Assembly: GCA_964600615.1 (NCBI GenBank)
Contig: CAZRJK010000008.1
Coordinates: 32 to 64,031 of the forward strand
From: an uncultured Muribaculaceae bacterium
Lineage (GTDB): Bacteria > Bacillota_I > Bacilli_A > RF39 > UBA660
Direction: 5' to 3'
DNA length: 64,000 bases
Shown here: piece after piece, positions 3,227-63,410 of the stretch
Layout of the letters: each line of letters begins with the position of its first letter
How positions within the stretch are numbered: position 1 is the stretch's first letter
Notes under the pieces: model-generated
Database searches by the model: none
Told to the model about the DNA's origin: nothing
Seen by the model: the letters and a program-made list of their open reading frames with translations, nothing else
Translations under genes and position numbers: made by a program

Positions 3227-4114
3227 ATGTTTAAAGCTGTATTTTCTAATAATAAATATATATTATCTAAATTAGTAGAAGCTATACTTGATTATTATAA
3301 AATAGATTTAGATATTAAAGATAAGGAATTAATTATTAAGAATAATGAATTACCACTTGATAATTATCAAGATAAACAACTAATATGTGATTATATTATT
3401 AAGATTGATAAAAATACTGAAATAAATATAGAAGTTAATAGATCTAAATATATTGGAGTAACTGAAAGAAATTTAACTTATAGTTTTAAAATTTTTTATG
3501 ATCATTTTAAAAGTGGTGATAAATATGATAAGTTTAATAGATATACTTTATTGCAAATAAATTTTAATAATTATAGTAATCCTAATGGTAAAAATATAAA
3601 TAGATATTATATGATTGATATAGATGATATAGAAAATATGTTATCTAATAGTTATAGTTTAATGAATATAGATATTGCAAGTTGTTATAAATTAGTATAT
3701 AATAATGATAATTTGAAAGAAATATCTGATCTAGAGAAATGGTCTGCAATAATTGGTTGTGAATATTTAGAAGATATATCTTTTATATTAGAAAAAGGAT
3801 TGATATCTATGAATAAAGAAGAAAAAGAAAAGTTAATAAAAGAAATTAAAGAAAAAGCAAAAGATAAGGAAATATTAGAAGCTGTTAAATTAGAAAATAC
3901 TATGGAAGATCGCTTTAAAATGATTGAAGATTTGGCATTAGAAACTGGTTTACAGCAAGGAATTGAACAAGGAATTAAGCAAGGAATTGAACAAAAAACT
4001 GTTGAATTAATAATGAATATGATTGTAAACAATATAGATTATGATACTATATCTAAAATAACTTCTAAATCTATTGAAGAAATAAAAGAGATAGAAAAAT
4101 CTATTAAAGATTAA
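3227..4114 (+). CDS. Rpn/YhgA-like PD-(D/E)XK recombination-promoting nuclease (putative transposase family)
   Basis: (LSYNA)MFKAVFSNNKYILSKLVEAIL N-terminal motif, DYIIKIDKNTEINIEVNRS nuclease-core-like motif, and C-terminal GLQQGIEQGIKQGIEQ repeats typical of this family. The frame is open upstream to 3167, so an ATT/ATC start at 3188/3191 after the SD is possible. Confidence 0.75.
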   Translation: MFKAVFSNNKYILSKLVEAILDYYKIDLDIKDKELIIKNNELPLDNYQDKQLICDYIIKIDKNTEINIEVNRSKYIGVTERNLTYSFKIFYDHFKSGDKYDKFNRYTLLQINFNNYSNPNGKNINRYYMIDIDDIENMLSNSYSLMNIDIASCYKLVYNNDNLKEISDLEKWSAIIGCEYLEDISFILEKGLISMNKEEKEKLIKEIKEKAKDKEILEAVKLENTMEDRFKMIEDLALETGLQQGIEQGIKQGIEQKTVELIMNMIVNNIDYDTISKITSKSIEEIKEIEKSIKD

Positions 4115-7330: not shown

Positions 7331-7354
7331 AAGATAATGTTTATTATCTTTTTT
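7331..7354. terminator. Bidirectional terminator between addA and the convergent RhuM/Doc gene
   Basis: aagataat-gttt-attatctt hairpin flanked by an A run and a T run. Confidence 0.7.
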
Positions 7355-8297
7355 ATTTTGTTAAGAAATTCATTACTAAATCTATTAGTATTTCTTTTTC
7401 TTTAGGATTAGATTGAGCTATTAATAAGGTTATTGCTACTAATGTATTATTATCAATTATTTGTTTATTATCTTTATATAGAATATTATAATAATTTAGA
7501 AAGTATATAAATAAAGTTGCTGCTATTCTTTTGTTACCATCTATAAAGACGTGGTTTTTAGTTATTAAATATAGAAAATTAGCTGCTTTTTCTTCTATAG
7601 TAGGGTATAAATCTTTGCTATCAAATGATTGATAGATAGTTTCTATTATTTCTTTTAATCCTTCATTTCTTTCTAGGGCAAATAATTTGCTTTGATTATT
7701 AAATTTTAATTTATTAATTATATTTAGACAATCTTCATATTTTATTTTGTTATCATTTTTTGTTCCTTTGGGATTAGTAATTATTTTGTGATCATAGTTA
7801 TCTAATAAATTTAGAGCATCTTTATAATTATTTATTACTTTAATTATATCTTGGGCTTCATTATTATTTAATTCGTTATCTATTCTTCCTGCTATATCTA
7901 TTAATTTAACTGTTTTTTCTAAATAATCTAATCTTTTTTGATTAATTGCATATCCTTTTAATAAGTAATCTTTTAGTACTTTGTTAGCCCATTTTCTAAA
8001 GACTATTCCATTTTTCGATTTAACACGGTAACCAATAGAAATAATCATATCTAAATTATAATATTCTATATTACGTTTTATCTCTCTTTTTCCTTCTTTT
8101 TGAACTGTTGCAAAAAATGCAACAGTTGAATTATCTAATTCTTCTTCTAATGCATTTTTAATATGTCTTGAGATTACTGATTTATCTCTATTAAATAGAT
8201 TACTCATTTGTTCTAATGATAACCATACTGTTTCATCTTTCATATTTACTTCTAATTTGATATTTTGATTTTCAAATAATATTATTTCATTTTTCAT
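7353..8297 (-). CDS. RhuM-like N-terminal domain fused to a Fic/Doc (death-on-curing) domain
   Basis: The N-terminal ~125 aa match the RhuM pattern (VWLSLEQMSNLF...YYNLDMIISIGYRVKS...FRKWANKVLKDYLLKGY). The C-terminus has the Fic/Doc motif HVFIDGNKRIAA. Confidence 0.8.
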   Translation of the reverse strand: MKNEIILFENQNIKLEVNMKDETVWLSLEQMSNLFNRDKSVISRHIKNALEEELDNSTVAFFATVQKEGKREIKRNIEYYNLDMIISIGYRVKSKNGIVFRKWANKVLKDYLLKGYAINQKRLDYLEKTVKLIDIAGRIDNELNNNEAQDIIKVINNYKDALNLLDNYDHKIITNPKGTKNDNKIKYEDCLNIINKLKFNNQSKLFALERNEGLKEIIETIYQSFDSKDLYPTIEEKAANFLYLITKNHVFIDGNKRIAATLFIYFLNYYNILYKDNKQIIDNNTLVAITLLIAQSNPKEKEILIDLVMNFLTK

Positions 8298-41526: not shown

Positions 41527-41745
41527 ATTGTGTTGTGAGATATAAGATTATGATGAGGAAATAGTAATACTTGGATATTAATATGAGAGAGTTAGTGTAA
41601 GGTGAGAGACTAATTATTAATAGAGTATGAATTCACCCTTTAGTTTTATCGTGTAATTACGTTACAAATAGAGAGTATAACATTGTTATAAAGAAAGGTG
41701 GTACCGCGGCTTGAGTCGTCCTTTTGTACCATCTTTTTTTGTGTT
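41527..41745 (+). promoter_or_regulatory. T-box riboswitch leader, Phe-specific (UUC specifier)
   Basis: AGAGA/GGUGAGAGA stem I distal elements, GAAUUCA specifier context (UUC at 41632-41634), and the conserved T-box aaaggtggtaccgcg (about 41695-41709). A terminator helix ggtggtac/gtaccatc and a T run follow. Confidence 0.85.
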
Positions 41746-42040: not shown

Positions 42041-43084
42041 ATGAAGGATGTAGAGAATTTATTAGGAGAGGTTAAGAGTATTTTTGATAATGTTAAAACT
42101 CTTGAAGAATTAAACGATTTAAGAGTTGAGTATATGGGTAAGAAGGGTAAGATTACTGAGGTTAATAGTCATATTAAAGATGTAGATAATGATAAGAAAA
42201 AAGAATTTGGTATGAAGGTTAATGAAGTGAAAACATTATTTAATTCTAAATATGAAGAAAAGAAAGAATTGTTTGAGAGAGAAATATTAAATAAGAGATT
42301 AGAGAGTGAAAAAATAGATATTTCTTTACCTAGTACTTGTGTTAGTGTGGGAGCTCCTAATATATTAGAGAAGTTAATTGAAGAAGTAGAAGATGTATTT
42401 ATGTCTATGGGATATGATGTTGTTGATGGCCCTGAGATAGAGGAAGATAAATATAATTTTGAGATGTTAAATATTCCTAAGGGCCATCCGGCTAGAGATG
42501 CTCAAGATACTTTTTATATAGATGGTGAAGAGATTCTTCTTCGTAGTCAGACTAGTCCTGTTCAGGTTAGGACAATGTTAAAGGGAGAAGGTAAAGTACC
42601 TATTAGAATGATATGTCCTGGTAAAACTTATCGTAGGGATGATGATGATGCTAGTCATTCTCATCAGTTTATGCAAATTGAAGGATTACTTGTAGATAAG
42701 GATATTAGTTTAAGTGATTTAAAAGGAACTATGGATGTATTATTTAAGAGATTATTTGGTAAGGATGTAGAGACTAGATTTAGACCTAGTTATTATCAAT
42801 TTACTGAGCCTTCAGTTGAAGTGGATATTACATGTGTTAATTGTCATGGTAAGGGATGTCCTGTATGTAAGAAAACTGGTTGGGTTACTGTTGTTGGAGC
42901 AGGAGTAGTTCATCCTAATGTTCTTCGTATGAGTGGATATGATCCTTCTATTTGGAGTGGTTTTGCTTTTGGATTTGGGGCTGAGAGACTTGCGATGATG
43001 AAATATGATATTAATGATATTAGAGTTTTTTATAATCCAGATTTGAGAGAAGCAAGTGTATTTGATAGGGAGGATGAGGAATAA
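42041..43084 (+). CDS. pheS: Phenylalanine--tRNA ligase alpha subunit
   Basis: Class II motifs (GHPARD, FRPSYYQFTEPSVEVD, GFGFGAERLAM). Confidence 0.96.
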   Translation: MKDVENLLGEVKSIFDNVKTLEELNDLRVEYMGKKGKITEVNSHIKDVDNDKKKEFGMKVNEVKTLFNSKYEEKKELFEREILNKRLESEKIDISLPSTCVSVGAPNILEKLIEEVEDVFMSMGYDVVDGPEIEEDKYNFEMLNIPKGHPARDAQDTFYIDGEEILLRSQTSPVQVRTMLKGEGKVPIRMICPGKTYRRDDDDASHSHQFMQIEGLLVDKDISLSDLKGTMDVLFKRLFGKDVETRFRPSYYQFTEPSVEVDITCVNCHGKGCPVCKKTGWVTVVGAGVVHPNVLRMSGYDPSIWSGFAFGFGAERLAMMKYDINDIRVFYNPDLREASVFDREDEE

Positions 43085-45453
43085 TGATTAGTTTAAATTG
43101 GGTAGGAGATTATATTGATATTAAGGATCAAGATGTATATGAACTTGCTACTAAGATAACTAAGGCGGGTATTAATATTGAATCTGTTGTTACTCATCAT
43201 ATTGATAATTTAGTTATTGGTAAAATAAAATCTGTTAAAGATCATCCTGATAGTGATCATTTACATGTTTGTGAAGTTGATGTAGGAGAGGAAGTTTTAC
43301 AAATAGTATGTGGAGCTCCTAATGTTAAAGAAGGTTTAAAAGTTATTGTAGCTAAGGTGGGAGCTATTCTTCCTGGTGATTTTGAAATAAAGAAAAGTAA
43401 GATTCGTGGAGTAGAATCTTGTGGTATGATGTGTGCTTTATTTGAATTAGGAGTAGAAGAAAAGACTGAAGAAAATTATGCTAAGGGAATATGTGAATTA
43501 GATAAAGATGCTCCTCTAGGAGAAGATCCTTTGGTATATTTAGGACTTGATGATACATTATATGAATTAGATATTCACAAGCATCGTAATAATGATTGTT
43601 ATTATCATATTGGTTTTGCTTATGAGATAGCATGTATTTTAAATCGTAAGGTTAAATTACCTTCTTTAGATTTTAAAGTTGTTAAGGATAAAGTTACTGA
43701 TAATTTTAAATTAAAAGTAGATAGTAAAAAGTGTACTTATTATATGGCTAGAGAGGTTAGAGATGTTAAGATAGGAGAGAGTCCAGAGTTTATTAAGAGA
43801 AGATTAATAGCTGCTGGGATGAGACCTATTAATAATGTTGTAGATATTTCTAATTATGTTATGCTTGAATTTGGGCAACCTTTACATTTCTTTGATAAGG
43901 ATAAATTAGGTAATAATATTGTTGTTAGAGATGCTAAAGATGGGGAAGAGATTATTACATTAGATGGTAATAAGAGAGTACTTGATAGTAATGATATTGT
44001 TATTACTAATGGTAAGAAGTCTGTTTGTATTGCTGGTGTTATGGGGGGAGAAAATACTGAAGTAGATAATAATACTAAAAATATATTAATAGAATCTGCT
44101 ATATTTGATGCTGTTAGTATTAGAAATACTTCTCGTAAGTTAGATCTTCCTAGTGAGGCTAGTATTAGATATGGTAAAGGATTATCATATGAGTATACAG
44201 AGATGGCTTCTCGTAGGGCTTGTCATTTATTAGAAAAATATGCAGGTGCTACTATATTAGATGGCTATGTGCTTGTAGATAATGAAAATCATGAAGATAA
44301 GAAATTATCTTTTAAAGCCAATGATGTTAACAAAATATTAGGTATAGATATATCTATTGATGATATGAAGAAAGAATTAGAAAGATTAGATTTTCCTTAT
44401 ACTTTAGATAATGATATATTTAATGTTACTATTCCTAAGAGAAGATTAGATATAGATGCTAATGTTAATGATATAGCAGAAGAAATTGGGAGATTATATG
44501 GATATAATAATTTAGTTTCTTCTTTACCTTCTGTTGAAGTTAGAAGAGGAGAGTATATAGGTGATGTTAAGTATCGTAAACTTGTATCTAGGAGGTTAAG
44601 GGCTTTGGGATTAAATGAAGTAAAGACTTATACTTTAGTTAGTCCAGATATGGCCAATAAGTTTAGATATGAAAATATTAAGAATGTTATTTTACCTAAT
44701 CCGATGAGTGTTGATAAGAGTGTGGTTAGAACTACTTTAATACCTTCTTTATTGAATGTTTATAATTATAATAAAGCTAGGGGAGTTAAAGATATTAATA
44801 TTTATGAGATTGCTAAGACTTATGATATTGATTATAATGAAACATCTAAAATATGTGGCTTAATGACAGGTAGTTATATTTATAGTAGTTGGAAGAGAGA
44901 TTTAGAAGTAGATTTTTATGTAGTTAAGGGTATAGTTGAGAATTTAATTAACTATATGGGATATGCTAATAGATATTCTTTTGTAAGAAGTAGTTGTGAT
45001 GATTTACATCCTGGTGTTCAAGCTAATATTGTTTTAGATGGTAAAAATATTGGTGTTATAGGAAAGATTCATCCTAGTATTTGTAAGAAAGATGTATATG
45101 TATTTGAACTTAATTTGAATAATTTATTTGGAAAAACTTCTAAGTTAAAATATAAAGAAGCATTTAAATATCCTTCTATTACTAAAGATATGGCATTTAT
45201 TATGGATAAAGATATAGATGTAAGTGAAGTTATTAAAACTATTAAAAAAGCTTCTGATAAAACATTACAAGAGGTAAATATATTTGATGTATATATTGGA
45301 GATAATATAGAAGATAATAAGAAGAGTGTTGCTTTTTCACTTGTATTTAATGGTATAGATCATACTTTAAAAGATGAAGATGTTATGAAGGTATTTAATA
45401 AAGTAATAGAGAATGTTAAGGATAAGCATAAAGCTATTTTAAGGGATAATTAA
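43084..45453 (+). CDS. pheT: Phenylalanine--tRNA ligase beta subunit
   Basis: N-terminal tRNA-binding domain (HPDSDHLHVCEVDVG), B3/4, B5 and FDX-ACB domains; coupled to pheS. Confidence 0.96.
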   Translation: MISLNWVGDYIDIKDQDVYELATKITKAGINIESVVTHHIDNLVIGKIKSVKDHPDSDHLHVCEVDVGEEVLQIVCGAPNVKEGLKVIVAKVGAILPGDFEIKKSKIRGVESCGMMCALFELGVEEKTEENYAKGICELDKDAPLGEDPLVYLGLDDTLYELDIHKHRNNDCYYHIGFAYEIACILNRKVKLPSLDFKVVKDKVTDNFKLKVDSKKCTYYMAREVRDVKIGESPEFIKRRLIAAGMRPINNVVDISNYVMLEFGQPLHFFDKDKLGNNIVVRDAKDGEEIITLDGNKRVLDSNDIVITNGKKSVCIAGVMGGENTEVDNNTKNILIESAIFDAVSIRNTSRKLDLPSEASIRYGKGLSYEYTEMASRRACHLLEKYAGATILDGYVLVDNENHEDKKLSFKANDVNKILGIDISIDDMKKELERLDFPYTLDNDIFNVTIPKRRLDIDANVNDIAEEIGRLYGYNNLVSSLPSVEVRRGEYIGDVKYRKLVSRRLRALGLNEVKTYTLVSPDMANKFRYENIKNVILPNPMSVDKSVVRTTLIPSLLNVYNYNKARGVKDINIYEIAKTYDIDYNETSKICGLMTGSYIYSSWKRDLEVDFYVVKGIVENLINYMGYANRYSFVRSSCDDLHPGVQANIVLDGKNIGVIGKIHPSICKKDVYVFELNLNNLFGKTSKLKYKEAFKYPSITKDMAFIMDKDIDVSEVIKTIKKASDKTLQEVNIFDVYIGDNIEDNKKSVAFSLVFNGIDHTLKDEDVMKVFNKVIENVKDKHKAILRDN

Positions 45454-48368: not shown

Positions 48369-50765
48369 ATGATGAGTGATATAAAACAAATTAAAAATAT
48401 TGATGTTAAACAAATTGCTTTGAGTGAAGATGCTGTGGCAAAAGGAGACTTTGTTAAAAGTGAAAAAGTTAAAACGAAATTTTGGGGCGATAACGGTACT
48501 ATATTAGAAGCTGTTCCTAAAGAAGTTAATGGTAAAACTGTATATAGAGTAGATGAAATTTTATTTGATGATAATGGGCGAGAAGTAAAGAGAGTTGGAA
48601 TGGGATTTACTACTAAGGAAGCAGTAGAGGCTAATATGGTAACAGATGGTAATAAGTCTAATAAGGGAAATTCTCCTAAAATTGAAATGTATACTGATAG
48701 TGGAACAGGGATTAAAAATAAAGAAAGTTCTAATGATGATGCTGCTGGTGGTGTTTCTAATTCTCCTACTGCTATTCCAGACGCTTCTACTGTAGAAGAG
48801 AAGAGTTCAGGTAGTATTTCTTCAGATGTTTTTCCTAAGCAAATTGGTGATAGACACTTTGTTGCTGCTTATGCTGGAGAAAGTGGTGAATTGGTTGGTT
48901 GTTATGATGATGGTTCTATGATAACTTATGTAGATGGAAAACTTCATAATATTTCCTTTGCTGAAAAAGAGCCTGATTCTACTAAATCTTCTGAACTTGA
49001 ATATGGACCAATGTTTGAAACTGCTGATCCTTTTTCTAATGTTGCTAACATGAATAATTTTTGGAAATTGGATGTAAATTCAACTATTAATTCTACATCA
49101 AATGCTGCTTCTAGTTCTGATGTTTTGTCTAATGCTTCTGATGAATTTAGCCAAAATATGGATTCAACTTCTGCAACTGCTTTAGGTATTGGTACTGCAG
49201 ATGCTTTAGATTTTGCTGCTACTACTGGTAAGGCGGCAGCAGATGCTGCAATGAATAAAATCAGCGGCTTAAAAGATGATATTGTTAGAGCGGCAGCTGA
49301 AGCTGCAATAGATGAAACTAGTGGGGTAAAAGATGTTATTGCTTTGTCTGATTATTTTAAGGATGAGCCGGTAAAAAGTGGCAATGTATTTAATTTCGCA
49401 TCTACTGATTTTCCAAAACCTAATGAGCAGACAGTTGAAGATGTAGCTAGGTATAATAAATATATGTCTGATATATATTTTGCTTTAAAGAATACAAACT
49501 TATTTAGTCCTGCTCAAATAGCTGGAATAATGGCCAATATGAAGGATGAAACTAATTCATATTTTAATCCTGGTACTAATTATGAACGAGTAGGTAGTGA
49601 TGATCCAGCATATAAAGATTTGTATTTTTATGATGCTAAGACTGGTAAAAAAATTGATTTAGATTTATCTTCTTCTGGTGCTGTGTCTAGAGCGCTTGCA
49701 AGTCGTGGTATACCTTCTAAAGGGGGAATAGGAATAATACAATGGACTGGTGATAGAAAAGATAAATATGTAGCTTGGTGTAATGAAAATGGTTACGAAT
49801 GGGATGATATTAATCATCAAGTTGAATATTTTGCTAAGGAATATACTTCTGATGAATGGAGTGAATTTAGAAAAAAATTTGAAAAAACACGATCTTCAAA
49901 AGAAGCAGCTAGAGTTTTTTGCGCTGATTTTGAAAAACCTAAAAATTCAAGTGGTGTTGGAGAAGAAAGAGCTGCTGATAGTGATAAATTTTATGATGCT
50001 ATTCTTGCATTTGAAGAAAAGGAAGGTTCGGGAAGAGCAGTGTTAAAGCCTGGTGCTGCTAAGGGATTAAGAGATAATACTAGTGCTGCAGTTGATAAGG
50101 TTTCTCATATACCTGATAATTGTGGAATAGCAGATGTAGAAAATTCTTCTAGTGATTATTATTTTCCAGATAATGGTGGAAATAATAAAGTGCCTCAATT
50201 TTTTCAAGGTCATGATTCTTCATGGGCTAATGTGCGATTTGGGGACCATACTTTGGCTAAGTCTGGTTGCTCAGTTGTTTCGTTTGCGATGAATCTTTCA
50301 TTTTGGGGAATAGGTAATAAGGGTTTTACTTTTCCTGATGATGTTGTACAAAAAATAATTGATGAAACTAGTTCACGATTTACGTATCATGTAAAGGATG
50401 TTGGTGCTGATTCAGCTAGTTTATTTCCTAAGCTTGCTGAATGGTATAATATGGATTATGCGGTATTATCTAAAAATAATGGTGATTCTGTAGTGAAATC
50501 TTTAAAAGATGGAAAACCTATTGTAGCACATTGTAGCCGTGGTTCATTTACTACTAAGGGTCATTTTATTGTTTTAACTGGTGTTACTGATGATGGTAAG
50601 ATTGTTATTAATGATCCTAATTATAATAATTATACTGGTAACAGAGATTATGTATCAACTAAAGATTATACATTTGATGAGTTAGTTAATATGGGTGTTG
50701 ATAAATTTTGGCAATTTACACCTAAAAATATGGATAGGAAAGGAGTAGCAGATTATGAACAATAA
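48369..50765 (+). CDS. Large signal-less protein: S/A-rich N-terminal half + phage-tail-lysozyme-like domain + C39-like cysteine peptidase domain
   Basis: AGIMANMKDETNSYFNP...GIGIIQWTGDRKDKYVAWC...QVEYFAKEY (lysozyme-like). QGHDSSWANVRFG...KSGCSVVSFAMNL...GHFIVLTGV...INDPN (C39_2-like). No signal peptide or TM. Confidence 0.8.
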   Translation: MMSDIKQIKNIDVKQIALSEDAVAKGDFVKSEKVKTKFWGDNGTILEAVPKEVNGKTVYRVDEILFDDNGREVKRVGMGFTTKEAVEANMVTDGNKSNKGNSPKIEMYTDSGTGIKNKESSNDDAAGGVSNSPTAIPDASTVEEKSSGSISSDVFPKQIGDRHFVAAYAGESGELVGCYDDGSMITYVDGKLHNISFAEKEPDSTKSSELEYGPMFETADPFSNVANMNNFWKLDVNSTINSTSNAASSSDVLSNASDEFSQNMDSTSATALGIGTADALDFAATTGKAAADAAMNKISGLKDDIVRAAAEAAIDETSGVKDVIALSDYFKDEPVKSGNVFNFASTDFPKPNEQTVEDVARYNKYMSDIYFALKNTNLFSPAQIAGIMANMKDETNSYFNPGTNYERVGSDDPAYKDLYFYDAKTGKKIDLDLSSSGAVSRALASRGIPSKGGIGIIQWTGDRKDKYVAWCNENGYEWDDINHQVEYFAKEYTSDEWSEFRKKFEKTRSSKEAARVFCADFEKPKNSSGVGEERAADSDKFYDAILAFEEKEGSGRAVLKPGAAKGLRDNTSAAVDKVSHIPDNCGIADVENSSSDYYFPDNGGNNKVPQFFQGHDSSWANVRFGDHTLAKSGCSVVSFAMNLSFWGIGNKGFTFPDDVVQKIIDETSSRFTYHVKDVGADSASLFPKLAEWYNMDYAVLSKNNGDSVVKSLKDGKPIVAHCSRGSFTTKGHFIVLTGVTDDGKIVINDPNYNNYTGNRDYVSTKDYTFDELVNMGVDKFWQFTPKNMDRKGVADYEQ

Positions 50766-57036: not shown

Positions 57037-57075
57037 TTAGATAGCTAATTGATTTGGAAGGAGGGTGGATTATTT

Positions 57076-57615
57076 ATGAACCGCCTAGAAGAAAAATATA
57101 AAACTAAAGTTGTTCCAAGTTTAAAATCTAAATATAACTATAGTACAGTTATGATGGTTCCAAGAATTGAAAAAATAGTTGTTAATATGGGAGTAGGAGA
57201 TGCTACTTTGAATTCTAAGTTATTAGATGCAGCTATTTCTGATTTGGAAAAGATTACTGGATTAAAACCTGTTGCTACAACAGCTAAAAAATCTATTGCT
57301 GGATTTAAGTTAAGAGCAGGTAATAAGATTGGTTGTAAGGTAACTTTAAGAGGAGAAAGAATGTATACTTTCTTAGATAAGTTAATTTCTGTATCTTTAC
57401 CTAATGTTAGGGATTTTAGAGGATTATCTCCAAGAAGTTTTGATGGTAGAGGTAATTATACTATTGGTATTAAAGAACAATTAATATTCCCTGAAATAAA
57501 CTTTGATGAAGTTGTTAAGGTAAGAGGTATGGATATTGTTATTGTAACAAGTGCTAAAAATAATGAGGAAGCTTATGATTTATTAAAAGAACTTGGAGTT
57601 CCTTTTAGGAAATAG
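57076..57615 (+). CDS. rplE: 50S ribosomal protein L5
   Basis: [14 protein letters not shown]...; internal ATG after SD ggaaggaggg. Confidence 0.97.
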
Positions 57616-57626
57616 GGAGGAATATA

Positions 57627-57812
57627 ATGGCAAAAAAGTCAATGATTGTTAAATCACAAAGAAAACCTAAATTTAAGGTTAGAGAATATACTAGATGTCA
57701 AAGATGTGGTAGACCACATGCTGTTATGAGTAAATTTGGTATTTGTCGTATTTGTTTTAGAGAATTAGCATATAAGGGACAAATTCCAGGTGTTAAAAAG
57801 TCAAGCTGGTAA
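57627..57812 (+). CDS. rpsZ: 30S ribosomal protein S14 type Z (zinc-binding, 61 aa)
   Basis: [10 protein letters not shown]...CRICFRE (CxxC...CxxC). Confidence 0.97.
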
Positions 57813-57832
57813 TTTAATTTTGGGGGATTAGA

Positions 57833-58333
57833 ATGAATTCAAAAGAGAAAGAGTTACTAAATGGAGTTTTATTTACTCCAAGCGGTGCTGCTAAAGTAAT
57901 AGTTTATTTGTATGATGCTCTTAAAGGAGAAAAAATAAATATAACTTATGAAGAGTATCAGGAACATCTTATTTTTAGTTCTATTCCTGAAGAAAGAAAG
58001 CAATTATTCTTTTTCGCAGGAGATTATGATAGTGAATTAATATGTGATATTCCTAAAAATGTTAGTTTTAATGAAAGAATATTGGCATTTGATTTTGTTT
58101 GTTGGGAATATGATCTTAAGGGTCCTATCGTTAAGAATTTAAATAAGATAACTCATAACAAGTTATTTTATAGTCGTACTACTTTTGATTATTTTAAAGA
58201 GATTGCTGAATGTTTTAATTATTTGGCAGGGATTCAAATTGAAAATAAACTATTAACTGATGAAGAATTAGTTGAATATGCTAAAGCTTTTGTTAATCAA
58301 AAAGGATATAAGAAAGCTTTAAAAAATAATTAG
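57833..58333 (+). CDS. Hypothetical 166-aa cytoplasmic protein inserted between S14 and S8 genes of the spc operon
   Basis: Clean ORF with SD-like ggggga 7 nt upstream. There is no terminator on either side, and it is visibly more AT-rich than the flanking r-protein genes. No motif recognised with confidence. Confidence 0.7.
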   Translation: MNSKEKELLNGVLFTPSGAAKVIVYLYDALKGEKINITYEEYQEHLIFSSIPEERKQLFFFAGDYDSELICDIPKNVSFNERILAFDFVCWEYDLKGPIVKNLNKITHNKLFYSRTTFDYFKEIAECFNYLAGIQIENKLLTDEELVEYAKAFVNQKGYKKALKNN

Positions 58334-58359
58334 TTTAAAACTAAAGAAGGAGGGATTTT

Positions 58360-58752
58360 ATGACAGATCCAATCGCAGATATGCTTACTAGAATTCGTAA
58401 TGCTAATCGTAATCGTGCAAAGACTGTAACTATGCCATCTTCTAAAATGAAAGAGCAGATAGCTACTATTTTAAAGGATGAAGGTTATATTACTAATTTT
58501 AGTGTAAAGAAAAATGATGTTCAAAATATCTTAACATTAACTTTAAAATATGCTGATAATAAAGAAAGAGTTATTACTGGACTTAAGAGAATTTCTAAAC
58601 CAGGTTTAAGAGTTTATGCTACGGCTTCAGAAATTCCTTATGTATTAAATGGATTAGGAATAGCTATTATTTCAACACCAAAAGGAGTTATGACTGATAA
58701 GTTAGCTCGTAAGAATAATGTTGGTGGAGAAGTTATAGCATATATCTGGTAA
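58360..58752 (+). CDS. rpsH: 30S ribosomal protein S8
   Basis: [15 protein letters not shown]... Confidence 0.98.
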
Positions 58753-59698: not shown

Positions 59699-60307
59699 AT
59701 GAGCGAAGAAAATATTAAGAACGAGGTTGCTAACGAAACTAAAGATACTTCAGTTAAAACTAATAAAACTGATAAGAAAGTTAATAATAGAAAACCTCGT
59801 CGTAATAATAATTTTTCTAGACAAAAAAGTGATCTAGAAGATAAAGTAATCGATATTAATCGTGTTACTAAGGTTGTTAAGGGTGGTCGTCAATTTCGTT
59901 TTTCTGCTACTGTTGTTGTTGGTAACAGAAAGGGTAAAGTTGGTTTAGGTACTGGTAAAGCTAAAGAGATGCCAGATGCTGTTAAAAAGGCTACTCAAGC
60001 AGCTAGTAAAAACCTAATCAATATTGAATTAATAGATAATCGTACTATTTCTCATGAAATTATTTCTAAAGAAGGTGCGGTAAGAGTAATGTTAAAGCCT
60101 GCTGCTGAAGGTACTGGTGTTAAAGCTGGTGGACCTGTTAGAGATGTTTTAGAGCTTGCAGGTGTTAAAGATGTCCTTTCAAAGAGTCTTGGTTCAAGTA
60201 CTAAGATTAATACTGCTAGAGCTACATTAAAAGCTTTAAAAGAGCAAAAGAGTCCATCTCATGTTGCAGCTTTAAGAGGAAAAACTATAGAGGAGATTAG
60301 AGGATAA
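59699..60307 (+). CDS. rpsE: 30S ribosomal protein S5 with a ~40-aa K/N-rich N-terminal extension
   Basis: [24 protein letters not shown]... Confidence 0.97.
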
Positions 60308-60744
60308 TGAAGTTACATGAATTAAAACCGGCTTATGGTTCTACACAATCTAAGAAAAGAGTAGGTCGTGGAGGAAAATATAGTAAGACAGCTGGTAAAG
60401 GTGAAAAAGGACAAAATGCTAGATCTGGTGGCGGAGTAAGACCAGGTTTTGAAGGTGGACAATTACCATTATTTAGAAGATTAGGTAAAAGAGGATTTTC
60501 TAACGCAAGATTTAAAACTGTATTTGCTTGTGTTAATGTATCTGATTTAAATAGATTTGATGAAAATACAGTAGTAACTCCAGAATTATTAATTGAATCT
60601 GGATTAATTGGTAAAGAATTAAATGGAATAAAAATTTTAGGAAATGGGGAATTATCTAAGAAGCTTACTGTTCGTGCTAATAAATTTTCAACTAGTGCTA
60701 AGGCTAAGATAGAAAAAATTGGTGGAAAAACAGAGGTGATTTAG
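60307..60744 (+). CDS. rplO: 50S ribosomal protein L15
   Basis: [12 protein letters not shown]...[17 protein letters not shown]. It starts on the rpsE stop codon, so there is no rpmD in between. Confidence 0.97.
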
Positions 60745-62004: not shown

Positions 62005-62664
62005 ATGAAGAATATTATTTTTATAGCACCTCCGGGTGCTGGTAAAGGTACTCAAGCTAAGTTAATTAGTGATACTTATAATATTCCTCATATTTCTACT
62101 GGTGATTTACTTCGTGATGAGAGGAATTCTGGTAGTGAGCTTAGTGAGATGCTTAAAGCGGAAATGGATAAAGGTAATTTAATAGATAATAGTATTATTG
62201 TTAAATTATTAAGAGCTAGACTTAATAAGGTTGATTGTAATAATGGTTATATATTAGATGGTTATCCTAGAAGTATAGAACAATCTAAAATATATGAAGA
62301 TTTGTTATCTGAACTTAATAAAGATATGGGCGTTGTTATCTATATGGATATTGATAAGGATTTGGCACTTGAGAGAACATTAAGTAGATTAATTTGTTCT
62401 TCTTGTGGAGCTTCTTATAGTAGTGCTTCAGCTGAGTTAAAACCTAAGATAGATGGTATTTGTGATAGATGTGGTCATGCTCTTAGGTTAAGAGGAGATG
62501 ATACTCCAGAAGTTTTTTCTAATAGGTTTGATACTTATTTAAAAGAAACTAAACCTTTGATTGATTATTATAATTCTTTAGGAGTTTTAAAGACTATTAA
62601 GGTTGAAGCTAAGGATACAGCGCAAGATGTTTTTGATAAGATAATAAAAATAATAGGTGAATAA
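62005..62664 (+). CDS. adk: Adenylate kinase (zinc-lid type)
   Basis: GAGKGT P-loop; CSSCG...CDRCG lid. Confidence 0.97.
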
Positions 62665-62683
62665 TAACGAGGAGATGATTAGA

Positions 62684-62902
62684 TTGAGTAAAAATGATGT
62701 TATTGAAACCGAGGGTAAAGTAATTGATATTATTCCTGGTGGTAAATTCAAAGTTCTACTTGATGGTGGTCACATAGTAGAAGCCCATGTTTCTGGTAAA
62801 ATGCGCGTAAATAATATACGTATTTTACCAGGTGATAAAGTTATTATAGAAATGTCACCTTATGATTTAACACATGGGCGTATAGTATATAATAAGAAAT
62901 AG
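62684..62902 (+). CDS. infA: Translation initiation factor IF-1
   Basis: (L)[23 protein letters not shown]... A TTG start at 62684, 9 nt after gaggag, is preferred. The track's GTG 62657 overlaps adk. Confidence 0.93.
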
Positions 62903-62913
62903 GAGGAATTAGA

Positions 62914-63027
62914 GTGAAAAGAAGAGCGTCAGTTAAACCTATTTGTGATAAATGCAAAGTAATAAAAAGAAATGGTAAAGTTATGGTTATTTGTGATAAT
63001 CCAAAACATAAGCAAACACAAGGTTAA
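62914..63027 (+). CDS. rpmJ: 50S ribosomal protein L36 (37 aa, zinc type); not in the ORF track
   Basis: GTG start after aggagg. Hand translation gives [37 protein letters not shown]. Confidence 0.95.
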
Positions 63028-63044
63028 TAAGGAGGAATTAATTT

Positions 63045-63410
63045 ATGGCACGTATAAAAGGTGTTGATATACCTGATAATAAAAGAATTGAGATTTCTTT
63101 AACTTATATTCATGGTGTTGGTAGAAGTTTATCTAATACTATTTTAAAGAATGCTAAGGTTGATATAAATAAGAAAACTAAAGATTTGACTGAAGATGAG
63201 CTTGCTAATATTAGAGCAGAATTAGATAAGCATACAGTTGAAGGTGATTTAAGAAGAGAAGTTGCTCTATCTATTAAAACTTTAAAAGAAATTGGCTGCT
63301 ATAGAGGTAAGAGACATATAAAAGGTTTACCAGTTAGAGGTCAAAGAACTAATAGAAATGCTAGAACTCGTAAGGGTAAAGGTAAGACTATTGCTAATAA
63401 GAAAAAATAA
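63045..63410 (+). CDS. rpsM: 30S ribosomal protein S13
   Basis: [14 protein letters not shown]... Confidence 0.98.

Follow-up and report, generated by a model that had tools for sequence, protein, structure and literature searches.

A candidate passenger gene of an orphan family between rpsZ and rpsH in the ribosomal operon cluster of uncultured rumen Bacilli

Ribosomal operons are known to carry passenger genes, such as secY, adk, map and infA in the spc-alpha operons. The L7Ae-like gene ybxF, which we take to lie between rpoC and rpsL in Bacillus subtilis, is presumably a further case. Here we describe a gene, called X throughout, that lies between rpsZ (encoding S14) and rpsH (encoding S8) in the S10-spc-alpha cluster on the plus strand of a 64,000-nucleotide (nt) stretch of contig CAZRJK010000008.1, from an uncultured bacterium (the whole stretch is termed the window). 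X is like the operon passengers in being embedded without transcription signals of its own, and in having its own Shine-Dalgarno (SD) sequence of adk strength; like ybxF, it is lineage-restricted. In contrast, the known passengers belong to widespread families and stand at operon ends or at known variable points, whereas X has no known family and occurs in two narrow lineages. It also separates rpsZ from rpsH. These two genes are part of a bacterial gene order that is among the least variable, and the pair is uninterrupted in 80 other listed genomes and in nine close relatives. No report of a gene inserted between rpsN or rpsZ and rpsH was found in the literature that we searched. We read the X locus as an accessory passenger gene in a ribosomal operon, a known phenomenon, with an unusually clear record of gain and loss.

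For this operon cluster in Gammaproteobacteria and Bacilli, a reconstruction by Brandis 2021 (PMC8046335) arrived at 163 alteration events. Those detailed there comprise losses of genes and insertions of small numbers of genes; the inserted segments lie between adjacent operons of the cluster or, once, between rplL and rsmC. The same study reported a recombinational replacement of rpsN (the rpsN2 isoform) within rplE-rpsN-rpsH of Streptococcus pneumoniae, indicating that foreign DNA can enter this segment by way of its flanks. That case was a swap of S14 isoforms, whereas X is an unrelated added gene.

The rpsZ-rpsH junction and the coding status of X

The frame of X has an ATG start, 166 codons and a TAG stop, and it is the single open reading frame (ORF) within the 547-nt gap between rpsZ and rpsH (Table 1). 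A GGGGGA sequence stands 5 nt ahead of the ATG. The coordinates, the SD and its spacing confirmed what a first-pass annotation, made from the sequence alone, had described as a complete ORF with its own SD-like GGGGGA in this gap. Its view that the junction is unusual also held. In 80 listed GTDB loci from Firmicutes and Actinobacteria, whose S8 proteins are 58–68% identical to the window's, the S14-S8 gap measured 18–225 nt and none of these gaps encoded a relative of X. Similarly, the reported lack of promoter-like and terminator-like elements around X was upheld: no terminator-like hairpin was found on the plus strand between 52000 and 61095, and promoter-like matches were at chance level (53 found versus 54.6 expected from shuffles).

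The exact protein sequence of X is encoded on 14 metagenomic contigs. Six of these, each at least 5 kb long, were looked up; they showed 99.4–100% nt identity to the window and carried X without a substitution. Three further variants, on short contigs, had 1–3 amino-acid (aa) changes, and X was intact in every full-length contig of the window's species. An 83-aa ‘protein’ (P0003) was traced to a 616-nt contig (L105), of which the first ~52 nt were unrelated, while the remainder matched, at 100% identity, the sequence running from about codon 64 of X into rpsH. Positions 1–52 of L105 are most likely a chimeric contig end, and we rejected the idea that P0003 is a degenerate copy.

Two short contigs (L001 and L002) encode another member of the family, P0002. 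This protein of 164 aa is 57% identical to X, with 95 residues invariant between the two, and it is placed directly after the S14 C-terminus and directly before the S8 start. The GGGGGA sequence and its 5-nt spacing are kept in L001. Comparison of X with P0002 gave a ratio of nonsynonymous to synonymous divergence (dN/dS) of 0.27 and a synonymous divergence (dS) of 1.06. The flanks of the same lineage pair gave a dN/dS of 0.26 and a dS of 1.01 for the S8 N-terminus, and a dS of 0.92 for S14. Along X, dN/dS was uniform at about 0.14–0.41. Because X and its flanks are equally diverged (dS ~1, dN/dS 0.27), X appears to have been diverging over the same span of time as its flanks, with purifying selection acting on it. 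The frame kept open in independent lineages, the dN/dS well below 1 and the conserved start signal all indicate that X is a functional protein-coding gene.

Searches for further relatives returned very little. A word-indexed search of 5.8 billion clusters yielded only the protein of the window's species (P0001) and P0002. An exhaustive hmmsearch of 1.84 billion representative proteins yielded only P0002, the window-species fragment P0003, and P0004, which we rejected as a repeat-protein false positive. X is known from two lineages among about 15 billion proteins. Pfam gave no match to X at E ≤ 10 and none to P0002, the Protein Data Bank (PDB) gave none by sequence or by profile, and PADLOC and PHROGs gave nothing usable for X or P0002 (the PHROG matches were noise). 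The sole NCBIfam match of X was to the MafI immunity family (NF033691; residues 61–90, E 0.0097), and because its 15.7 bits fell below the curated cut-off of 31 we rejected membership in that family. An origin by duplication of a neighbouring gene was likewise rejected, since no paralogue of X was found in any of the six frames of the window. On these searches, X appears to found a new orphan family.

The product of X is a protein of ~19 kDa that is predicted to be soluble. Its isoelectric point (pI) is 5.3, versus 9.2–10.7 for S14, S8, L5 and L6. We found no transmembrane segment, as the first-pass annotation had stated; the maximum 19-residue Kyte-Doolittle mean was 1.37. Being acidic and absent from nine close relatives, X is not a bacterial ribosomal protein. 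AlphaFold2 (AF2) models of X and P0002, built from an input alignment of two effective sequences, had 3–4 strands and 3–5 helices at low confidence (predicted local distance difference test, pLDDT, 49 and 47, respectively). Both low-scoring models placed the elements in the same order: an N-terminal helix, a hairpin, one or two strands, and two C-terminal helices. In these models the hairpin would be formed by the invariant block RKQxFFFAGDxDSELICDI.

Gain, retention and deletion

Ruminant gut metagenomes commonly contain S8 proteins that are 91–98% identical to that of the window. Eight such proteins were looked up, which led to nine distinct relatives, and X was absent from all nine of these closest relatives sampled. 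The spacers between S14 and S8 fell into two classes. In the first, or scar class, the spacer measured 87 nt (L095, L100, L101) or 73 nt (L096, L097). The 5′ end of the scar is a decayed X leader (TAATATTATTTGGTTTTGGTGATAAAAA versus TAATTTAATTTTGGGGGATTAGAATG in the window), and the 3′ end consists of the last X codons, the stop and the X-S8 spacer (AAATAATTAGTTTCAAACTAAAGAAGGAGGG versus AAATAATTAGTTTAAAACTAAAGAAGGAGGG). In the alignment of the 3′ end, L095, L100 and L096 keep AAATAATTAGTTT(C/A)AAACTAAAGAAGGAGGG, and L001 keeps AATTAGTTTTAAAACTAAAGAAGGAGGG. In the second, clean class (L098, L102, L103, L104, L091), the spacers of 28–35 nt shared only the core of the S8 SD and bore no trace of X.

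In a neighbour-joining tree from 1647 nt of L5, S14, S8 and L6, the window, L095, L100 and L096 clustered together (100% bootstrap support). This clade comprised exactly the genomes with X or with a scar, and the clean-spacer genomes were outgroups. The dS between the window and the scar genomes was 0.35–0.39, and that between the window and the outgroups was 0.48–0.78. The split between the two X lineages (dS ~1) exceeds the depth of the scar clade, and X is therefore older than the clade. It follows that the spacers of 73–87 nt are remnants of a deletion of ~460 nt and not precursors of the gene. Branching within the scar clade had 43% support, and there may have been one deletion or two.

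The deletion left rpsZ and rpsH intact: S14, compared over its C-terminal 40 residues, remained 92–100% identical, and S8 95–98%. The existence of sister lineages with intact S14 and S8 but without X indicates that X is dispensable for the ribosome. The first-pass annotation had taken a degenerate frame in sister strains as a sign against the gene. Within the species no such decay was seen, the full-length copies being intact, but one level up the sister species have deleted X. This loss argues against a core ribosomal role, not against the gene being real.

The lineage that carries P0002 is distant. Its S8 N-terminus is 65% (aa) and 70% (nt) identical to those of all members of the window's group, and it is about equally distant from other orders. 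X may be ancient and cleanly lost in every intervening lineage; alternatively, it may have reached the identical junction twice by recombination through the conserved flanks. We rejected a recent transfer between the two lineages, because X and its flanks are equally diverged and have no flank tract in common.

The AT-richness of X had been read as a mark of late acquisition. X is indeed more AT-rich than its ribosomal neighbours (GC content 0.259, versus about 0.29–0.35), but its composition is normal for the genome. Among the window's 66 larger ORFs, which have a mean GC of 0.282 (standard deviation 0.046) and a mean GC at third codon positions of 0.143, X ranks 16th of 66 in GC and has a third-position GC of 0.138. 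Ribosomal protein genes are GC-rich because of their Gly, Arg and Ala content; it is these genes, not X, that are the GC outliers. Composition thus gives no sign of foreign origin and was rejected as a mark of it. The claim that X was acquired rather than ancestral was nevertheless supported, by phyletic distribution and not by base composition.

Expression, proposed role and competing explanations

The duplex between the X SD and the anti-SD was computed at −8.4 kcal/mol, with the canonical anti-SD assumed because the 16S gene is outside the window. This value equals that of adk (−8.4) and is near those of L15 (−8.9) and L6 (−9.3), whereas most ribosomal protein genes fell between −10.7 and −13. 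Since X is set off by spacers of 20 nt and 26 nt and lacks its own transcription signals, it would be part of the operon transcript. The expected pattern would be abundant X mRNA and moderate translation.

We propose that X entered the rpsZ-rpsH junction in an ancestor shared by uncultured Bacilli of the rumen that form a small clade, and that it was then kept by purifying selection in the window's species and deleted in its closest relatives. Read-through of the S10-spc-alpha operon would supply its transcript, and translation would start from its own conserved, rather weak SD. The product would be an acidic, soluble alpha/beta accessory factor, and a dispensable one. It may act as a stoichiometric binding or neutralising protein of the immunity or antitoxin type, a role that constitutive high expression would favour. 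Taken alone, the evolutionary and structural parts of this proposal are, in our judgement, very probably right. The full account, namely a genuine accessory gene of an orphan family, gained at the junction, expressed by read-through and deleted in the sisters, is the explanation that we favour, with lesser confidence and with the functional guess set aside. The immunity-type role, though our best guess at a function, seems rather unlikely. It was suggested by general properties, in that X is small, acidic, fast-evolving, patchy, dispensable and presumably expressed constitutively.

Several points weigh against this proposal. The distant lineage is known from contigs of at most 1 kb (L001, L002), and its phylogenetic position is weakly anchored. 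In both assemblies the S8 ORF ends at codon 59, with unrelated AT-rich DNA beyond it (L001 672–1002, L002 649–838); the cause may be a misassembly, or the locus may really be disrupted or partly duplicated. The junction survey covered at least 80 GTDB loci listed, with some GTDB relatives outside the sample, and co-transcription and translation of X are inferred from its sequence. The AF2 models are of low confidence, as noted above (predicted TM-score 0.52 for X), each homologue having served once as target, and a Foldseek search of the PDB with both models returned noise only (E ≥ 0.19, TM-score ≤ 0.33). As for the functional guess, the MafI match was not reproduced in P0002. No toxin gene or immunity array was found near X, whose neighbours are rpsZ and rpsH in every locus. 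Lastly, hhalign gave a probability of 0.5% for the X alignment against four solved chains of the SUKH immunity family, a lead considered below.

A bolder possibility is that X founds a new family functionally tied to its location, either as a factor that protects the ribosome or confers immunity against ribosome-targeting toxins and is made in stoichiometric amounts with the ribosomal proteins, or as a new type of site-specific selfish gene homing to S14-S8. The identical site in two distant rumen lineages and the repeated loss are compatible with both versions. We consider such a tie improbable.

Homing endonuclease genes follow a cycle of invasion, degeneration and loss. X might be, or might ride on, an unrecognised nuclease that targets the S14-S8 junction, spreads via the highly conserved flanks by recombinational repair, decays and is deleted. 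Sporadic distribution together with the same site in divergent hosts is a mark of homing genes, and X shows both: it is patchy, and it occupies an identical intergenic site in lineages whose S8 N-termini are as far apart as given above. X has left no trace in closer relatives, its deletion has left scars in sister lineages, and an invariant acidic cluster (D64, D66, E68, D72) lies in the predicted beta-hairpin. Free-standing homing endonuclease genes share with X this patchy occurrence and loss by deletion, but they differ from it in several respects. No nuclease domain (LAGLIDADG, GIY-YIG, HNH, His-Cys, PD-(D/E)XK) was found in X in Pfam, NCBIfam or PHROG, and for LAGLIDADG, GIY-YIG, HNH and PD-(D/E)XK this held at a threshold as loose as E ≤ 10. 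X and P0002 separated long ago (57% identity, dS ~1) and diverged like their flanks, with no indication of recent transfer. Flank alignments revealed no co-conversion tract or signature common to the X-bearing flanks. The uniform dN/dS along X would fit a protein that benefits its host no less than a selfish one.

Searches for mobile carriage were also negative. X was not found in plasmids or phages by tblastn, and peptide and degenerate-DNA patterns retrieved no relative from IMG/VR or the JGI metagenomes. Repeats flanking X, whether inverted repeats or target duplications, were chance repeats only. The first-pass annotation had held that a clear match to a mobile-element gene or homing endonuclease would explain X trivially; no match to a transposase or homing endonuclease was found across Pfam, NCBIfam, PADLOC, PHROG, plasmid, phage and viral searches. 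A passenger of an insertion sequence or transposon was rejected because X has no terminal repeats, target-site duplication or transposase domain, and no plasmid, phage or viral copy. The lack of terminal repeats and target duplications, and the absence from phage, plasmid and viral collections, speak equally against homing, to which we give little credence.

It is comparably doubtful that X is a ribosome-associated accessory factor, one that would bind the small subunit or chaperone the basic S14 and S8 in assembly, with the operon providing stoichiometric co-expression. This idea is consistent with the place of X in the spc operon, where both neighbours encode primary or early assembly proteins of the 30S subunit, with its acidity (pI 5.3) beside basic neighbours and with a purifying selection comparable to that on the S8 N-terminus. 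There is also a precedent in the non-universal L7Ae-like ybxF, presumably inside the str operon of B. subtilis. However, X was deleted without replacement in the closest relatives, in which S14 and S8 are as well conserved as stated above. A factor of this kind would also have to be confined to two lineages among 15 billion proteins and to have an SD weaker than those of ribosomal protein genes, and X shows no similarity to known assembly or hibernation factors in Pfam or NCBIfam.

The first-pass annotation had noted a faint resemblance to SUKH/SMI1-KNR4 proteins, and X might accordingly be an orphan immunity protein of that group, directed against a nuclease toxin. The SUKH core fold has four helices and six strands, with a hairpin and a 4-stranded meander (Zhang et al. 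2011, PMC3113570). By eye, three motifs of X stand in the right order (FFFAGDxDSELICDI, ILAFDFxCW and TFDYFKEIAECF). X is likewise small, acidic and cytosolic, its predicted helices and strands follow a broadly alpha/beta order, and the weak MafI match at residues 61–90 points in the same direction. To examine the resemblance we used a hand-written SUKH consensus, which as a positive control matched PF09346 at 5e-37. Its matches to PF09346, PF14568 and PF14567 ranged from 1e-25 to 1e-37, with that to PF14435 falling below the cut-off (E 0.0073); the method therefore works. The consensus recovered the solved chains 2prv, 3d5p, 2pag and 2icg, from which 120 SUKH proteins were gathered.

The resemblance did not survive these comparisons. 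Neither PF09346, PF14567, PF14568 and PF14435 nor any other Pfam family matched X at E ≤ 10. The hhalign probability was 0.2% against 14 diverse SUKH representatives, in addition to the 0.5% given above for the four solved chains. With all filters off, a SUKH hidden Markov model scored X at −0.3 bits and P0002 at 0.5 bits, whereas shuffled X reached 7–15 bits. The N-terminal helix-to-hairpin segment of X is ~30 residues too short for the unit of strands 1–2 and helix 3, and SUKH chains were outside the top 50 listed Foldseek matches of either low-confidence model. The MafI match, below its cut-off and missing in P0002, and the want of a toxin or immunity array nearby also count against membership. 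X thus differs from SUKH/SMI1-KNR4 proteins in lacking statistical sequence or profile similarity and a toxin neighbour, and its fold is predicted at low confidence. The SUKH resemblance appears to be a pattern seen by eye and nothing more, and we judge membership very unlikely.

Least probable of all, and strongly disfavoured, is that X is a non-functional ORF, either a frame open by chance or a remnant undergoing decay, in an AT-rich spacer that has expanded: its orphan status, the low AF2 confidence, its AT-rich composition and its loss in relatives would suit this, but 166 codons were kept open in two lineages at dS ~1 with a dN/dS of 0.27 and 95 invariant residues, the SD is conserved, and loci that were not maintained were trimmed to 73–87 nt with no long pseudogene left.

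Feature coordinates, neighbouring observations and significance

The features of the junction are given in Table 1.

Table 1. Features at the rpsZ-rpsH junction, in window coordinates.
Feature	Position	Strand	Basis
rpsZ (61-aa zinc-type S14), upstream neighbour of X	57627..57812	+	ORF and translation; PF00253 on the identical gene in L085-L090
S14-X spacer, 20 nt, with X SD GGGGGA at 57822-57827	57813..57832	+	Sequence; conserved in L001; decayed copy TTTTGGTGAT in scars of L095, L100, L096
Gene X: 166-aa acidic (pI 5.3) cytosolic alpha/beta protein (predicted), orphan family	57833..58333	+	ORF; dN/dS 0.27 versus L001 homologue
Last X codons (AAA AAT AAT TAG) and 26-nt X-S8 spacer with S8 SD (AAGGAGGG, 58347-58354)	58322..58359	+	Alignment; segment survives in sister-lineage scars
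rpsH (S8), downstream neighbour of X	58360..58752	+	ORF; PF00410

Several other features of the ribosomal cluster were observed. There is no rpmD (L30) between rpsE and rplO (window 59699–60744), and the stop codon of S5 overlaps the start of L15 at 60307; all close relatives looked up have this arrangement. At 62005–63045 (14173–15213 in L085), adk is followed directly by infA and rpmJ, with no map at this position; we take the B. subtilis arrangement to have map (methionine aminopeptidase) there. L24 (56707–57036) has a Lys-rich C-terminal tail and ranges from 88 to 115 aa among close relatives, and S5 (59699–60307) has an Asn/Lys-rich N-terminal extension and ranges from 193 to 205 aa among relatives; both extensions are fast-evolving and of low complexity. 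The start of rplE (57049–57615) is ambiguous, in that the ORF opens with TTG at 57049 and the conserved start MNRLEEKY lies at the ATG at 57076; gene callers report 154, 179 or 188 aa, depending on the contig.

Elsewhere in the window, a 798-aa protein with Phage_lysozyme2 and Peptidase_C39_2 domains (48369–50765) is encoded immediately upstream of the S10 operon. A T-box leader (41541–41726, 103.6 bits) lies upstream of a pair of ORFs of 347 aa and 789 aa (42041–45453). Finally, a PD-(D/E)XK transposase-like protein (PDDEXK_2; 3227–4114, plus strand, GC 0.196) and a RhuM and Fic/DOC protein (7353–8297, minus strand), both from very AT-rich genes, may mark a mobile or accessory patch.

The gain of X, together with the scars in sister lineages, constitutes a natural experiment on how far an essential operon tolerates passengers and on how such passengers are purged. 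As a clean orphan under purifying selection, for which strong expression is expected, X would be a tractable target for work on structure and function. If X does bind ribosomes or a toxin, or home to its site, it would define a new family; otherwise it would be one more lineage-specific accessory gene.

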